From a virus, in IMG/VR virus record IMGVR_UViG_3300038468_000223, positions 1-64,000 of that record: a DNA stretch of 64,000 bases. One strand, written 5' to 3'. This document shows, piece after piece, positions 3,027-8,520 of this stretch. The notes below the pieces were generated by a model. It was not told where the DNA came from, did not search any database, and saw only the letters and a list, made by a program, of their open reading frames with translations. The first letter of the stretch is position 1. Every line of letters begins with the position of its first letter. The position numbers and the translations under genes are program-made.

Positions 3027-3371
3027 CTACCTCGGTACTCTTGTGAGAAGTTCGACGAACTCGCTACAGTCGGGTGGTTTCGTACTGTGATGGTCTTCAC
3101 GAAGATGACCGCAACGCGAACAAAGTTCGGTGGCGAAGACCTCCATGCGTGTTCGATACTCTTGGTCACCTCGCGAACCGTATCCGCCTTCGTCGGCCTC
3201 CCATGATCTTCCGCGTGCTTTGCAGCGCGAACCGCATCGAGGACATGCGACCTCGTTCAGCTCACATTGTGTCGGCACACGAACGTCAAAGACCAGCCCA
3301 CCGAGATCGGCCGATGACTTCGGAGGATGGAAGCAAGAGTGACATTCGAACGAGTACCAGTGATCACTCAT
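3027..3371 (-). CDS. Zn-finger hypothetical protein
   Basis: Several CxxC pairs. Confidence 0.55.
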   Translation of the reverse strand: MSDHWYSFECHSCFHPPKSSADLGGLVFDVRVPTQCELNEVACPRCGSRCKARGRSWEADEGGYGSRGDQEYRTRMEVFATELCSRCGHLREDHHSTKPPDCSEFVELLTRVPR

Positions 3372-3395
3372 GAACGTCGAGGCCCCACAGGGTGT

Positions 3396-3707
3396 TTACG
3401 CGAACGGCTCAAGGAAGGTGAGATCCTTGCCGAGTTCGGCGGCGCGGGCGATGCCGCGGCGGGTGGTCTCGCCGATGTAGCCGTTGTAGTTGACGACGAA
3501 GACCTCGCCGGCGAGCGCGACCTTCGCGAGCATCAGCTCGTCGAGCATCTCCTTCTGCACGCTGGTGATCGGCACCATGTCGACGTGGTGGAAGAAGCCC
3601 GCGACCAGCACGATCTTGCCCTTGAGGGTCTCGCGCTGCGCGATGCCAAGGTGGAACTGCTTGAACCTGGTGGAGCCGATGATCGCGACGATCGTGGGCC
3701 TGGGCAT
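3396..3707 (-). CDS. Hypothetical Rossmann-like phage protein
   Basis: IIGSTRF...VFVVNYNGYIGETT pattern, typical of DUF4406 / deoxyribosyltransferase-like proteins. Confidence 0.6.
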   Translation of the reverse strand: MPRPTIVAIIGSTRFKQFHLGIAQRETLKGKIVLVAGFFHHVDMVPITSVQKEMLDELMLAKVALAGEVFVVNYNGYIGETTRRGIARAAELGKDLTFLEPFA

Positions 3708-3895
3708 CAGGCACCTCCTTCGAGTCGCGCTTGCACGTGCGTGATCGTGGCGGACCGCACCTCGAGCCCCGCGAGCATGCGGGTGATCGTCGAGTGGGAG
3801 ATGCCGAGCTTCTTCGAGCTGTTCCTCAGCCCTTCCCTGTCGACGAGGGCTCGGAGCTTGATCTGCAGGGCCTTGGGTGTGATCGCGTCGCTCAT
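3707..3895 (-). CDS. Small helix-turn-helix regulator divergent from the cas gene
   Basis: GLRNSSKKLGISHSTITRMLAG HTH pattern. Confidence 0.7.
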   Translation of the reverse strand: MSDAITPKALQIKLRALVDREGLRNSSKKLGISHSTITRMLAGLEVRSATITHVQARLEGGA

Positions 3896-3907
3896 GTCGA
3901 TCGGAGC

Positions 3908-3950
3908 TTGACACCGTTCGTTCTAGGAGTCAACATCCGAACCGTTGACA
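3908..3950. promoter_or_regulatory. Divergent promoter/operator region
   Basis: TTGACA at 3908 and 3945; inverted repeat TTGAC-N16-GTCAA (3908-3933); CAACAT lies 17 nt after the first TTGACA. Confidence 0.5.
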
Positions 3951-3959
3951 GTCGCCGCG

Positions 3960-4135
3960 AACAAAAATCGTCTGTTGGAGGAGCCATGTCTCTGCGTACC
4001 GGGTCGACTCCACGACCTGTAGGCGAATCAGTCGAAGGACACAGCGGAGGATCTGCCGCGGAAGAGAGCCCCTCGACGCTCGCCAATCGCCCCTCTGGGG
4101 CCACTCCAACTGCCTCCCCGCAAGGGGAGTGCGGA
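3960..4135 (+). ncRNA. Candidate tracrRNA
   Basis: ACTCCAACTGCCT (4103-4115) can form 13 contiguous pairs (3 G:U) with repeat segment GGGTGGTTGGAGT and runs into a CTCCCC-GCAA-GGGGAG hairpin; hairpin GGTCG-ACTCCA-CGACC (4002-4017) has a loop complementary to repeat TGGAG; boundaries approximate. Confidence 0.6.
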
Positions 4136-5668
4136 GACGTGGCTCCTTCAGCAGACGATGAAGTCATCTGCGCCAAGTGCGGCAAGCCGCAGGTCCACAA
4201 GGACGACGGCAAGAAGCAGGAGGTCTGCTCCTGCATCAAGATCGTCCGGGCTACGACGCGGTTCCAGATCGACCTGACGTCGCTCAGCCCCAAGGCCCCG
4301 CCGGGGGCCAAGCGGCCGCTGTCGCCGGCGGAGAAGGCGCTGCGCGACGCGCTGCAGGACGTCGCCGTGCTCGCGACGACGGCGCGCAACGTCGCGATGC
4401 GCGCGAACTACGGCGCCGACTCCAAGAGCCTCGACGACTACCTCCTCGAGCACGGCGAGATGCCGCGGAAGTCTGCGGACTGGTGCACGACGAAGCTCTA
4501 CTCGTACCCGAAGATCCGCGCGGCGGTCCCTCGGCTCTCGAGCAACATCGCCGCCACGCTGCAGCGCGAGATCGATCGGAAGTGGTCGCAGGTCCGCTTC
4601 GACGTCCTCATCCGCCAGATCGACTCGTGCCCGCACTTCCGCGTCGGCCAGCCGGTGCCGGTCCCCGCATCCTCGCTCAGGATGCGCAAGCGCGAGGACG
4701 GCGCGCTCGTCCTGTCCTTCTCGCTCTACTCCGGGGCCCACGACGGCGTGAAGAGCGTCGAGGTCCCGATGATCGCGCGCGACGACCACCAGCGGGAGCT
4801 GCTGGAGAAGATCGCGACGGGCGAGTACAAGTACGGGCAGGCGATGATCGAGCGCGATCGGCTGCGGCCGTCGCGGTGGTACCTGCGCCTGGCGTACACG
4901 CGCAAGGTCCCCAAGCGCACCGAGGGGATCGTGGCCGGCGTGCATCGCGGCATCAAGACGTTCCTCTGCGCCGTCACCGCCGACGGCGAGCAGTGGCTCT
5001 ACGACGGCTACGACATCGAGGCGTACCTGAAGCAGGTGCAGCGCCGCCGGCGTCGGATCCAGAACAGCGTCGTCGCGAGCGCACGCGTCGGCCACGGGCG
5101 ACGCCGCGTGCTCACGCCGATCTCGCATCTGCAGGACAAGGCGGCGCGGTGGCGCGCGACGCGGTGCCAGGTGATCGCGCGGCGCCTGGCGCAGTGGCTC
5201 TCGGACCGCAACGTGCGGCGCGTCTACCTCGACGACTTCGTCGGCATCCGCAACGGGCTGCCCGAGCAGCTCGAGGGGGGCCAGACGACCTGGCAGCGGA
5301 TCCAGGAGTGGCCCTTCTACGAGATGCAGATGCGCTTGATCGCGTGCCTGCAGGAGTACGGCATCGAGACCGTCGTCCGGCCCGCGGCGTACATCTCGCA
5401 GCGGTGCCCCCGCTGCGGTCACGTCGCGCAGGAGAACGTCGACCTGAAGTTCTGGTGCGTGCGCTGCACGAAGTGCCGGTTCAAGAAGCACCTCGACATC
5501 AGCGCCGGCATGAACCTCATCGCGAGCGGCGAGGCGGCGTCGAAGGGCGAGCCTAGTGATTTCCTGCGGATGCAGGAGAAGATAGAGGAGGTCCGGAGGG
5601 GCGCTCGCAGAGCGAGTCGCAAGAGCACGAAATCAAAGGAGGCCGACGCGCGGGGGCGGAAGGCGTGA
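3986..5668 (+). CDS. cas12f: Cas12f-like (type V, TnpB-derived) effector with altered RuvC catalytic residues; start may be GTG 4139
   Basis: GHGRRRVLTPISHLQDKAARWR and WPFYEMQ..GIETVVRPAAYISQRCPRCG..CTKC..HLDISAGMNL match the Cas12f/TnpB layout; RuvC-I is GVHRG (D to H) and RuvC-II is YLDDF (E to D); directly abuts a CRISPR array. Confidence 0.85.
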   Translation: MSLRTGSTPRPVGESVEGHSGGSAAEESPSTLANRPSGATPTASPQGECGDVAPSADDEVICAKCGKPQVHKDDGKKQEVCSCIKIVRATTRFQIDLTSLSPKAPPGAKRPLSPAEKALRDALQDVAVLATTARNVAMRANYGADSKSLDDYLLEHGEMPRKSADWCTTKLYSYPKIRAAVPRLSSNIAATLQREIDRKWSQVRFDVLIRQIDSCPHFRVGQPVPVPASSLRMRKREDGALVLSFSLYSGAHDGVKSVEVPMIARDDHQRELLEKIATGEYKYGQAMIERDRLRPSRWYLRLAYTRKVPKRTEGIVAGVHRGIKTFLCAVTADGEQWLYDGYDIEAYLKQVQRRRRRIQNSVVASARVGHGRRRVLTPISHLQDKAARWRATRCQVIARRLAQWLSDRNVRRVYLDDFVGIRNGLPEQLEGGQTTWQRIQEWPFYEMQMRLIACLQEYGIETVVRPAAYISQRCPRCGHVAQENVDLKFWCVRCTKCRFKKHLDISAGMNLIASGEAASKGEPSDFLRMQEKIEEVRRGARRASRKSTKSKEADARGRKA

Positions 5669-7074
5669 GCGGGTGGTTGGAGTTTGGAGGCGCTGCGTGG
5701 TGGACCTCACGATCGATCCAAGGACCGGCGGAAGGCGTGAGCGGGTGGTTGGAGTTTGGAGGCCGGCGAGCGTCCAGCGGCGCGCGCTCGCGGCACGACC
5801 CCAGGCGGAAGGCGTGAGCGGGTGGTTGGAGTTTGGAGGCGTCACGAGGCGCCGCAACGTCTCATCACTGGCGCGGGGGCGGAAGGCGTGAGCGGGTGGT
5901 TGGAGTTTGGAGGGGAAACTAGGAGGTCCCCCCCGAACGGAGGCGGAAGGCGTGAGCGGGTGGTTGGAGTTTGGGAGGTGGTGCGCGAGCCGAAAGAACG
6001 CTTCGCTGACGTGCGGCGGAAGGCGTGAGCGGGTGGTTGGAGTTTGGAGGCACTTGCTCGTGAGCGCGTCGACGAGCCCTTCCGGGCGGAAGGCGTGAGC
6101 GGGTGGTTGGAGTTTGGAGGCAGGCGTCTTGGCCGCACTGGGACTCTTGGCGGAAGGCGTGAGCGGGGTGGTTGGAGTTTGGAGGATGGCGTACACCGAC
6201 GAGGAACTGAGCGAGATCTAGGCGGAAGGCGTGAGCGGGTGGTTGGAGCTTGGAGGATCGCCCGCGTCCGCGCGCGGCGGAAGGCGTGAGCGGGTGGTTG
6301 GAGTTTGGAGGGACTGACGCCGCATCACCGCTCTGGGGTTGTGGCGCAGACGGAAAGCGGGAAGGCGTGAGCGGGTGGTTGGAGTTTGGAGGGTCGAGAA
6401 GCTCCCTGCGTTCTATGTGAACCCGACGAGACGGAAGGCGTTGGAGTTTGGAGGATGGCCAAGGGAAAGAACCAGCACGTCGTCCCCCAGACGGAAGGCG
6501 TGAGCGGGTGGTTGGAGTTTGGAGGTCTTTGCGCGTCCGCCCGAGCACATGTCGATGGCCGAGACGGAAGGCGTGAGCGGGTGGTTGGAGTTTGGAGGAA
6601 CTCCTCGCGGCGCCGTGCAAGCTCGGCCGGCGTGAACGGGTGGTTGGAGGTTTGGAGGGCCGCCGGGCGCTATGCGTCGCGCTCGCGACGTCCGAGCCGG
6701 CGAAGGGCGTGAGCGGGTGGTTGGAGTTGGGAGGATGTGGATCCTCCGACGACGGCGGGGTGGCGTTCATCCGCGCCCGCGCCGGGCGGAAGTCGTGGTT
6801 GGAGTTTGGAGTGGAGTGGAGGATCGCCTTCGTGCGATGGCGTAAGTGGGGGAGTTTGCTTGGCGGAGGGAGGGAACGTTGGAGCTGGAGGAGCGTGACG
6901 GCGTCGACGCCGCAGTGGAGGGCGGGTGGTTGGAGTTTGAAGGCACGGTGGCGTTCATCCGCGCCCGCGCCGGGCGGAAGGCGTGAGTGGGTGGTTGGAG
7001 TTGGAGGCTCGACGACGGATGGCTGCCGAAGCACCCGCGGCGGAAGGCGTGAGCGGGTGGTTGGAGTTTGGAGG
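5655..7074 (+). CRISPR. CRISPR array, repeat GGCGGAAGGCGTGAGCGGGTGGTTGGAGTTTGGAGG (36 bp), about 20-22 repeats
   Basis: Near-exact repeats start at 5655, 5727, 5804, 5878, 5942, 6015, 6085, 6149, 6221, 6276, 6490, 6563, 6973 and 7039; degenerate or deleted copies near 6357, 6430 and 6625-6945; unique spacers of about 19-50 nt. Confidence 0.95.
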
Positions 7075-7139: not shown

Positions 7140-7433
7140 ATGAGCGAGAACATGCGTACTACATGGGTCGCCAGAGACGTGCAGGCCGGTTGCTTCGCCT
7201 GCTACGGCTTCGAGGCGCACTGGTTTGGTGGAAACGCACAAGGTGTCGCAGCTCGCCACCATGATGCAACCGGCCATGAGACTTGGTGCGATGTCGCAAT
7301 GTCGATCCGATATGGTGGCGACGGCTCAACCGCCTCACACCAAGAAGCGCCCCCGGGATCGCGCCCCACGTTGAACAAGGTGAACCGCAGATCGACCGGC
7401 CGGAGCGGAAGTAAGAGAACGACGCGTGTATAA
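7140..7433 (+). CDS. Hypothetical protein
   Basis: ATG at 7140; CxxC and HH..GH pattern. Confidence 0.55.
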   Translation: MSENMRTTWVARDVQAGCFACYGFEAHWFGGNAQGVAARHHDATGHETWCDVAMSIRYGGDGSTASHQEAPPGSRPTLNKVNRRSTGRSGSKRTTRV

Positions 7434-7527: not shown

Positions 7528-8520
7528 ATGAAGCCCGCCGATCTCGCCCTCGCCGCCCTCTCCGGACCCGAGGCTCCGCTCGCGCCGCTCGAGGCGACGC
7601 GCGCGGACCAGAACCCGGTCTTGGTCTACCTGGCCGGCCGCAAGAGCGAGCGCACGCGCCAGACCATGCGCCAGGGCCTCGAGCGGCTCGCGCGCGCCGG
7701 CGGTTGGGCGAAGTACCCCGTCGAGGCCATCCCCTGGCACCAGATGACGTTCGCGCACACCGACGCGCTGCGAGCGGCGCTCACCCGGCAGGTCTCGCAG
7801 TCGACCGTGGCGCTGTCGCTCGCGGCGCTGCGCGGCGTGTCCAAGACCGCCTGGAAGCTCGGCCTCGTGACCTACGAGCAGCACGCGCGCGCGACGGCGT
7901 GGGACCTCGGTGGGACCCCAGACCGCCTCCCTGCCGGACGCGAGATCTCGCCGCCGGAGATCGTCAAGCTCCAGGCCTACTGCACGGCACAGCCGACGCC
8001 GTACGGCGAATTTCTCAGCGGGATCTTCGCGGTGCTCTTCGGCGCCGGCATGCGCGCGCACGAGCCCGGAGGGCTCACGATCGACGCCTACGATCCGGAT
8101 GAGCACTCGGTGCGCTTCGTGCGCAAGGGGCGCAAGCAGGCCGAGATCCCGCTGGGCGGCGCCGAGGCGGCCGCGCTCGAGGCCTGGATCGCGGTCCGCC
8201 GCACGCTCGACGTGCCCGCGACGTGGCTCTTCCCGCGCGTGCAGCGCAACGGCATCGTGCGCGCCCAGCCGATCACGAACAAGGGGCTCTGGCACCTCTG
8301 CAAGGCGATCGGCGAGGCGGCGAGCATCCGCGAGTTCAGCCCGCACGACACGCGCCGAACGTACTGCACGCGCCTGCTCAGCTCGGGGCTCGACCTGGCG
8401 ACGGCGCAGCGCCTCATGAGCCACTCGAGCCCGGCGACCACGGTCCGCTACGACAAGCGGCAGGCGCGCGCCGACGCCGAAGCGCGGCAGCGCGTGACGA
8501 TCTGGGGAGGTGAAGGATGA
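7528..8520 (+). CDS. Tyrosine recombinase (Xer/Cre-like resolvase or integrase)
   Basis: Catalytic R (GMRAHE), K (RKG), HDTRR, MSH and Y (TTVRYD). Confidence 0.92.
   Translation: MKPADLALAALSGPEAPLAPLEATRADQNPVLVYLAGRKSERTRQTMRQGLERLARAGGWAKYPVEAIPWHQMTFAHTDALRAALTRQVSQSTVALSLAALRGVSKTAWKLGLVTYEQHARATAWDLGGTPDRLPAGREISPPEIVKLQAYCTAQPTPYGEFLSGIFAVLFGAGMRAHEPGGLTIDAYDPDEHSVRFVRKGRKQAEIPLGGAEAAALEAWIAVRRTLDVPATWLFPRVQRNGIVRAQPITNKGLWHLCKAIGEAASIREFSPHDTRRTYCTRLLSSGLDLATAQRLMSHSSPATTVRYDKRQARADAEARQRVTIWGGEG

Follow-up and report, generated by a model that had tools for sequence, protein, structure and literature searches.

A mostly viral clade of Cas12f-derived CRISPR effectors without the first RuvC aspartate, and a predicted in-frame tracrRNA at the 5′ end of its effector genes

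Introduction

Natural type V CRISPR effectors that bind DNA without cutting it, and that carry altered catalytic triads, are known from Cas12m (PMC10442227, PMC11013384), which makes the system described here less unprecedented than it would otherwise be. That system comprises a Cas12f-derived effector gene, a CRISPR array directly behind it and a predicted trans-activating CRISPR RNA (tracrRNA) inside the 5′ end of the gene, and it lies on a 64,000-nt stretch of viral DNA (IMG/VR record IMGVR_UViG_3300038468_000223, positions 1–64,000), hereafter called the window; coordinates are positions in the window unless a locus label is stated. We propose that the effector is probably a cleavage-deficient DNA binder, guided by tracrRNA and CRISPR RNA (crRNA), that the virus would use to silence other mobile elements or host genes, a reading that leans on analogy with Cas12m.

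In Cas12m, the RuvC triad of MmCas12m2 is H-D-D, and other clades carry N-D-D, N-E-D, or D-E-D (PMC10442227, PMC11013384). All tested Cas12m proteins bind DNA beside a protospacer-adjacent motif (PAM) but leave it uncut, and they both repress transcription and confer protection from plasmids and phages (PMC10442227, PMC11013384); absence of cutting together with protection has been reported for HDD, NDD, and DED triads alike (PMC11013384). Within Cas12m2, the HDD site holds one Mg2+ ion and the displaced (non-target) strand (PMC10442227).

Altered sites are also on record closer to Cas12f. Altae-Tran and colleagues (2023) note sizeable branches of Cas12f in which the catalytic site is altered, and describe V-U24, a CRISPR-linked TnpB-like group with a non-canonical RuvC-I motif and a helix-turn-helix (HTH) neighbour (PMC10691335); our literature search found no functional study of either. 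The dCas12f-sigmaE system of Flagellimonas taeanensis (PMC13472631, PDB 9n9c) belongs to a distant branch. Its effector has a truncated C terminus and no RuvC-III, is partnered by sigmaE, takes single guide RNAs, and acts as an activator of transcription (PMC13472631).

The effector and its catalytic site

The effector gene encodes 560 amino acids (aa) from its ATG start, or 509 aa from an alternative GTG start at 4139, which is the collection's own gene call; an earlier reading of the window from its letters alone (the original prediction) had proposed a Cas12f-like open reading frame (ORF) of 510–560 aa. The product matches the Pfam family Cas12f1-like_TNB above its cut-off (36.9 bits) and OrfB_IS605 just under the cut-off of that family, and falls under the curated NCBIfam cut-offs for both CRISPR_Cas12f2 (20 bits against 450) and guided_TnpB (91.7 against 100). 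As a single sequence, its best solved relative is AsCas12f (E 1e-29). A profile run against solved structures recovers AsCas12f (1e-52), SpCas12f1 (5e-52), OsCas12f (5e-42), Un1Cas12f1 (4e-25), and CnCas12f1 (4e-23), with sigmaE-dCas12f (6e-9) and UnCas12m4a (1e-3, C terminus only) as distant matches; the Mm and Go Cas12m proteins are absent among the matches of this profile.

The fold points the same way. An AlphaFold2 model (mean predicted local distance difference test score 82) has a core similar in size to that of AsCas12f, the REC2 insertion not being evident in the predicted model; residues 1–76, which overlap the tracrRNA element, are predicted to be disordered. Foldseek ranks AsCas12f first (E 1e-29, template modelling (TM) score 0.66) and orders the remaining structures as the profile does, with Cas12m far behind Cas12f (E ~1e-12, TM 0.33–0.40). 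Pfam, profile, and Foldseek all place the effector with Cas12f.

Residue alignment to AsCas12f resolves the catalytic site as H320/D416/D504, in agreement with the His codon, the Asp substitution, and the intact third motif that had been read from the sequence (Table 1). Contigs from two wetland metagenome runs are letter-identical over the effector gene; both span the H320 codon, and one of them also covers D416. The non-canonical residues are therefore not a sequencing error. In the run contigs, the array has been collapsed by the assembler.

Loss of the first catalytic aspartate across a clade

The original prediction had drawn attention to the His and the Asp of this one phage; neither is special to it. 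Among 48 close homologs (35%–56% identity), Asp occurs at the RuvC-I position in none, the residue being N in 34, H in six, T in four, C in two, and S and A in one each, while RuvC-II is E in 29 and D in 14, and RuvC-III is Asp in all 48. An exhaustive profile-free search adds approximately 100 further cluster representatives at E <1e-46, followed by a clear gap and then by ordinary Cas12f proteins of 400–450 aa.

A tree and alignment were made from 170 sequences, of which 140 lack the RuvC-I Asp and 30 are classic Cas12f. A branch with 100% local support splits the two sets, and in classic Cas12f, the sister group, the triad is D-E-D in 28 of 30. Within the clade (n = 140), RuvC-I is N in 101 proteins, H in 19, T in nine, and R in seven, with Asp in 0/140. 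The residue that follows is R or K in 111 of the 140, where the outgroup has L or M. At RuvC-II, E is present in 103 and D in 19 (E or D in 122/140), and RuvC-III is D in 134. Some terminal sub-branches have decayed further, to CSD, SGD, TAD, RPD, or HPD. Of the members sampled, none but the window protein is H-D-D, and it is nested within an N-E-D subclade (29 rows, 98% support).

Since the split is supported at 100% and not one of the 140 members has the Asp, loss of the first catalytic residue is old and has been maintained; judged from tree and alignment, it goes back to the ancestor of a clade that counts at least 140 protein clusters. The substitutions are neither an error nor a recent decay, and at RuvC-I the homologs, which might have refuted the original prediction by showing the D/E, did the opposite. 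At RuvC-II, where the Asp of the window protein had been counted as a second sign of inactivation, most relatives keep the Glu, and the change from E to D is therefore a minor, conservative variant. The finding is more general than the original prediction held, being clade-wide and not confined to one phage.

Clade proteins are also approximately 100 residues longer than classic Cas12f (median 541 against 438 aa), largely through an N-terminal tail that overlaps the tracrRNA, and the effector family is under clear purifying selection. Source annotations call its members 'transposase' or leave them unnamed, and a protein atlas yielded generic TnpB/Cas12f-like clusters only.

A predicted tracrRNA within the effector gene

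The lead to the tracrRNA was a peptide conserved at the N terminus of the clade (GH..EE.SP..LAN), which lies within the region predicted by AlphaFold2 to be disordered. Conservation of this peptide extends to the nucleotides of its codons, among them GAA, AAA, and AAT, which these GC-rich genomes seldom use. When the 300 nt that precede the first core beta-strand (the IVRAT motif) are aligned for 22 loci, the alignment reveals a conserved element of approximately 120–140 nt with obvious compensatory changes. The RNAalifold consensus of 19 loci contains 24 pairs, 18 of them with double compensatory changes; 93.9% of paired cells are complementary in the alignment, as against 72.2% in column shuffles (none of 500 reaching the observed value) and 31%–43% when partners are slid.

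A covariance model, R1, was built from the same number of loci (19) and run over 38 related loci, two of them from IMG/VR and 36 from metagenomes; three loci that begin inside the gene were not assessable. At the window element, R1 scores 96.2 bits (E 1e-22). One strong match per locus is found in 36 of the 38 (50–108 bits, with L002 weaker at 35), including loci outside the model. Matches are always on the gene strand and nearly all lie at or overlap the 5′ end of the gene; elsewhere, matches are weak (<17 bits). No Rfam family matches the element.

Pairing with the repeat was assessed through exact complements. The longest exact complement between the tail of the element and its cognate repeat averages 8.9 nt over nine loci, against 5.6 nt for non-cognate repeats, and in eight of the nine, the anti-repeat keeps a constant place, pairing tail offset 16–22 with repeat nt 17–30, downstream of the fourth hairpin. 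A duplex-energy matrix of tracrRNA tails against repeats was uninformative because the G-rich repeats bind any C-rich tail, and exact-complement lengths were used in its stead. An RNAduplex scan for anti-repeats returned only noise and degenerate terminal repeats, and the 3′ end of the ORF together with the first repeat shows no unusual structure (z -0.41).

Covariation, the matched variation of anti-repeat and repeat, and the single R1 match per locus together identify the structured RNA at 3999–4130, at the level of sequence, as the tracrRNA for which the original prediction had named a candidate. Its presence fits descent from a tracrRNA-dependent Cas12f and separates the clade from Cas12m, which uses crRNA only.

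The tracrRNA region read in frame

The element appears to be both RNA and coding sequence. Measured from the RNA's conserved GCTCGC motif, the first core codon lies at a distance of 1 modulo 3 in 18 of the 22 loci, even though 13 different distances (70–232 nt) occur, and in several loci, the sole in-frame start lies upstream of the element. The kept phase and the upstream-only starts thus indicate that the element is translated in most members, as the disordered N-terminal tail; in the L005 and L032/L034 lineages, an in-frame stop places the start downstream. The phase suggests genuine dual coding. The tracrRNA would accordingly be cut from, or co-transcribed with, the 5′ part of the effector mRNA, with the array as the 3′ part of the same unit. 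Gene finders carry the ORFs of the clade straight through the tracrRNA (window 3986–4240; 5′ ends of L001–L037), and the motif GH..EE.SP..LAN is the RNA read in frame.

The array and its spacers

An array of around 20 repeats had been predicted, and repeat analysis delimits it to 20–21 units (Table 1). The array opens inside the last codons of the gene, the effector stop codon sitting within the first repeat. Repeats 1–8 and the final one are perfect, whereas truncated or degenerate units occur several times between 6360 and 6950, and the spacers vary from 19 to 48 nt, one of them duplicated. A spacer-like stretch of approximately 30–40 nt is present at both 6751–6790 and 6939–6972, where the distal array has decayed; this repetition suggests duplication or recombination within the array.

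Across the family, most loci with downstream DNA have an array that begins 0–175 nt after the effector stop codon. Repeats are 36 nt, with a 5′ start resembling G[TG]CG[CG]AACGG.TGA and a 3′ end of GG(A/C)AGG, and spacers are typically 35–39 nt. Near-identical loci from different samples (L010–L013; L032 against L034) are distinguished by one or two whole spacers, in some cases internal ones. Spacers are therefore gained or lost even though no cas1/cas2 lies nearby.

Protospacers were sought in several places. None was found among GenBank phages with the spacers, in IMG/VR with three of them, or in GTDB genomes with one degenerate spacer pattern. Among the 38 related loci, nothing was matched beyond the spacers that near-identical arrays have in common. 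No target of the window spacers was found in the two related IMG/VR genomes, and a comparison of their array with the genome of this virus was likewise negative.

Three of 19 window spacers begin exactly with ATG (6186–6220, 6455–6491, 6735–6794) and read like protein N termini (MAYTDEELSEI, MAKGKNQHVVP). Family-wide, this is so for five of 116 unique spacers against approximately 1.8 expected, a weak excess, and no database match to these spacers was found.

Two departures in layout were seen among the related loci. In L028, which has a lower GC content, the array (3160–3817) lies upstream of the tracrRNA (3974–4095) and the gene and not downstream; the unit can therefore be permuted. In four others, a second array with a different repeat lies a few kb 3′ of the first (L021:8981–9817, L022:10691–11196, L024:12608–13424, and L025:11216–11748).

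Carriers and neighbouring genes

The clade is mostly carried by diverse phages, without a fixed protein partner. Genes near the related loci match 106 PHROG families; integrases, endolysins, a baseplate hub, thymidylate kinase, PAPS reductase, and QueC-like proteins are among them. No neighbour gene is conserved over the 38 loci: no family occurs in more than six of them, the recurrent families have no Cas-related Pfam match, and no sigma factor is found in the neighbourhoods. A pattern scan of GTDB representative genomes, which is of limited sensitivity, found no relative.

The virus itself is known from one record of 105,511 bp with direct terminal repeats, from a wetland source. It is of the temperate type, there being an integrase in the window, which also encodes an M23 endolysin-type peptidase and, by Pfam and PHROG matches, a phage-type module for replication and nucleotide metabolism (PrimPol, SNF2 and UvrD helicases, DNA methyltransferases, a dNMP kinase, ThyX, and a Sak4-like protein). 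The rest of the record (G000 64001–105511; L039–L041) contains a family-A-like DNA polymerase and many HNH endonuclease matches; among the PHROG matches listed for it, there are no terminase, portal, or capsid families and no recognisable virion genes. That cas1/cas2 and a Tn7 or sigma-factor partner are missing, as the original prediction held for the window, is true of the whole record, in which searches for Cas1, Cas2, Cas4, Sigma70_r2, and TniQ found nothing. No transposase occurs among the top Pfam or PHROG families of the window.

Upstream of the effector, the divergent 62-aa ORF that had been called an HTH gene does exist. Its Pfam HTH matches are all below cut-off (E 0.002–0.07), and on its sequence an HTH identity is plausible. 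As a partner of the family, it was considered and rejected, no recurrent HTH family being present upstream of 28 related loci; the gene is particular to the window locus. The palindromic operator proposed beside it is weak: the sole inverted repeat in its support, read from the sequence, is one of 6 bp (GTCAAC 3929–3934 and GTTGAC 3944–3949), and a repeat finder gave none of 8 nt or more in the intergenic region. A scan for consensus promoters and terminators yielded nothing useful. Two further small ORFs flank the system. A gene of approximately 100 aa (3396–3706, minus strand) follows the HTH-like gene, with a stop/start overlap TGATG at ~3701–3709 and no family match; a Cys/His-rich ORF of approximately 95 aa (CFACYG...HHDATGHETWC; 7140–7425, plus strand) stands between array and integrase.

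Table 1. Features of the CRISPR system and its surroundings, in window coordinates.
Feature	Position	Strand	Basis or remark
Small HTH-like gene, 62 aa, divergent from effector gene	3707..3895	-	Pfam HTH_1, HTH_50, MarR, HTH_3, all under cut-off
Divergent intergenic region	3896..3985	.	TTGACA boxes 3908-3913 and 3945-3950; GGAGGA ribosome-binding site before ATG 3986
Cas12f-derived effector gene, 560 aa	3986..5668	+	ATG start six bases 3′ of GGAGGA ribosome-binding site
Predicted tracrRNA, structured RNA inside ORF 5′ end	3999..4130 (3′ end about)	+	Covariation and covariance model
tracrRNA stem 1	4001-4018	+	RNAalifold consensus
Long-range helix pairing GGCGA (4022-4026) to TCGCC (4080-4084), variable hairpin inside	4022-4084	+	RNAalifold consensus
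tracrRNA hairpin	4090-4100	+	RNAalifold consensus
Anti-repeat of tracrRNA	4101..4117	+	Core ACTCCAAC (4103-4110) complementary to repeat nt 22-29
Terminal GNRA hairpin	~4113-4129	+	tracrRNA 3′ end
RuvC-I position, His320 (CAT) at Cas12f catalytic Asp; Arg next, as in most of clade	4943..4945	+	Residue alignment to AsCas12f
RuvC-II position, Asp416 (GAC) at Cas12f Glu	5231..5233	+	Residue alignment to AsCas12f
TNB zinc ribbon CxxC...CxxC (C474, C477, C494, C497)	5405..5476	+	Conserved in at least 90% of homologs
RuvC-III position, Asp504 (GAC), retained	5495..5497	+	Residue alignment to AsCas12f
CRISPR array, 20-21 units, purine-rich 36-nt repeat ending GGAGG, co-oriented with gene	5655..7074	+	Repeat analysis
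Tyrosine integrase (context, outside the CRISPR system)	7528..8520	+	Pfam Phage_integrase, E 8e-26

Proposed mechanism and alternatives

The locus would form a single transcription unit, running from the tracrRNA through the effector mRNA to the crRNA array, in a complete, adaptation-less type V unit. In the proposed history, the clade split from canonical Cas12f1, and the first RuvC Asp gave way mostly to Asn or His, the next residue being Arg or Lys, and the other two acidic residues and the zinc ribbon were kept. The tracrRNA:crRNA duplex would guide the protein to matching DNA beside a PAM, where it would stay bound without making a double-strand break; the retained Asp/Glu residues would coordinate a single metal ion and keep the displaced strand clamped, in the manner of Cas12m2. 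Competing mobile elements or host genes to which the effector is bound would thereby be hindered in their transcription or replication, an effect shown for Cas12m. Of the array-programmed, binding-only phage system originally predicted, the virus-borne type V locus, Cas12f-like effector, array, tracrRNA, and non-canonical triad all stand; binding without cutting is the best reading, and we infer it, as we do roadblock silencing, co-transcription, and the identity of the targets.

Several observations weigh against this proposal. Part of the window's own array has decayed. No protospacer was found for any spacer in the searches made, and hence neither a PAM nor the kind of target follows from them. 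Cas12m is not a close relative, and its biochemistry therefore applies by analogy only. Furthermore, the conserved Asn/His and Arg/Lys at RuvC-I, together with two acidic residues, could equally mark a remodelled active site, and it has been argued in general terms that conserved, specific alterations of the catalytic site may keep nuclease activity with changed specificity (PMC10691335).

Such a remodelled site is the main rival, to which we give perhaps a minor share of belief, with recruitment of a partner, self-regulation, and decay less likely still. It holds that the altered site is catalytic as a one-metal or general-acid centre that nicks, cuts single-stranded DNA or RNA, or processes pre-crRNA, with interference based on a nuclease of unusual chemistry. 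The strong constraint on the site is as this rival would have it, RuvC-II being acidic in 122 and RuvC-III Asp in 134 of the 140 proteins, and so is the non-random replacement at RuvC-I, where N or H accounts for 120 and R or K follows in 111. Cas12m proteins with the same triads, however, gave no cleavage of double-stranded DNA, and their pre-crRNA processing is independent of RuvC (PMC11013384); reversion of Cas12m2 from HDD to DED failed to restore cutting (PMC10442227). The sub-branches in which RuvC-II is lost as well fit a relaxed need for catalysis.

A second rival, which we consider improbable, is a targeting module that recruits an unlinked or host partner—an integrase, transposase, polymerase, or sigma factor—for guided integration or activation, as in Cas12k and dCas12f-sigmaE. 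The integrase of the window begins 450 nt 3′ of the array, integrases recur near some relatives, and inactivated TnpB has been associated with tyrosine recombinases (PMC10691335). Against these stand the neighbourhoods, in which the most frequent gene family reaches six of the 38 loci and has no Pfam match, the failure to find a sigma factor or TniQ in the genome, and the long multi-spacer arrays, which are unlike the short homing arrays of transposon systems.

More doubtful again, and disfavoured, is an array that regulates the virus's own genes, for example in a lysis-lysogeny switch. A divergent HTH gene with an integrase nearby is the usual place of lysogeny control, but the spacers have no match to the virus's own 105.5-kb genome beyond chance, the best being 13–18 nt. 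Least credible of all is a decaying relic without function in this virus: the truncated repeats, irregular spacers, and duplicated spacer would suit it, but two runs give the same, intact ORF, the score of the tracrRNA is 96 bits, repeats 1–8 and the final one are perfect, and the family is under purifying selection.

Returning to guided binding without cleavage as the preferred reading, a more specific form of it can be offered tentatively, as a possibility that we rate below even. A Cas12f lineage spread mainly by viruses may have converged on the Cas12m solution with guide machinery carried on one transcript, the tracrRNA serving also as 5′ coding sequence in frame with the effector; translation and use as a scaffold would then compete for each mRNA, which would amount to autoregulation, and the system would silence host or rival genes, with some spacers placed at start codons. 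TnpB takes its omega RNA from its own mRNA, and a tracrRNA drawn from the effector mRNA would mirror that at the opposite end of the gene.

Significance

Three things are new: that the clade arose convergently from Cas12f, that it is distributed on viruses, and that its tracrRNA is in frame, in a single-unit layout. If the proposal is true, array-programmed type V interference without cleavage has arisen a second time, independently, and the Asn/His-Glu/Asp-Asp site is a recurrent evolutionary end-point, not a peculiarity of Cas12m. With at least 140 clusters, the clade is large; it is also mostly viral and overlooked by standard annotation, and it bears on phage-phage and phage-host conflict without DNA breaks. 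The in-frame tracrRNA offers a concrete case, open to testing, in which one region would serve as both RNA and protein code, and the element corrects the N termini that gene finders call for the clade. As a natural, compact, dual-RNA DNA binder (~430-residue core) from the well-engineered Cas12f scaffold, the effector would be a candidate for repression or base editing.

Comparison with known systems

Transposon-borne and arrayless relatives differ most in layout. Cas12k of type V-K transposons has tnsB, tnsC, and tniQ nearby and a short array, whereas the viral genome has no TniQ and the top window families include no transposase. TldR uses a single omega-RNA-type guide at its 3′ end and has no array, in contrast to the array and 5′ tracrRNA of the window system.

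Two other virus-borne systems are likewise compact and without adaptation genes. In Cas12r of the Thermus Lalka phages, arrays target competing integrative elements; unlike the window effector, Cas12r has an intact D-E-D triad and uses crRNA only, and its interference needs RuvC (bioRxiv 10.64898/2026.04.20.719267). Cas12m of myxophage MV-1 also differs in its intact D-E-D and its use of crRNA only (bioRxiv 10.64898/2026.09.14.751636).

The dCas12f-sigmaE protein, which is marked by an operonic ECF sigma factor with a C-terminal extension, is a naturally nuclease-deficient Cas12f derivative, as the window effector would be; in the window effector, however, D504 is kept along with the zinc ribbon, the genome encodes no sigma factor, and an array of ~20 units accompanies the gene. 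For V-U24, the non-canonical RuvC-I fits the window and the HTH neighbour may do so, albeit the HTH association is not seen across the window clade, which may be V-U24 or one of the branches of Altae-Tran and colleagues, the comparison being by description only.

Closest in sequence and fold are the Cas12f1 effectors of type V-F (AsCas12f, SpCas12f1, OsCas12f, and Un1Cas12f1), with which the window protein shares a ~430-residue core of WED, REC, RuvC, and TNB zinc ribbon, a dual-RNA guide (tracrRNA and crRNA), an adjacent array, and 36-nt repeats. An asymmetric homodimer assembled on one guide RNA is a further mark of type V-F effectors. The window clade departs from them in lacking the RuvC-I Asp throughout, in the longer N-terminal tail over the tracrRNA, in an array that starts at the stop codon, and in its occurrence mostly on viral contigs without cas1/cas2/cas4.

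Cas12m of type V-M (MmCas12m2, GoCas12m) is related to the clade at the level of the TnpB superfamily only, and uses crRNA alone where the window clade has a tracrRNA. It shares with the clade, however, the triads HDD, NDD, and NED, a similar size (~600 aa), 36-nt repeats, the absence of adaptation genes, and residence on mobile elements. Because sequence and fold put the clade with Cas12f, the likeness of the triads is convergent, and Cas12m, through its binding-based silencing, would be the best functional analogue of the viral system.

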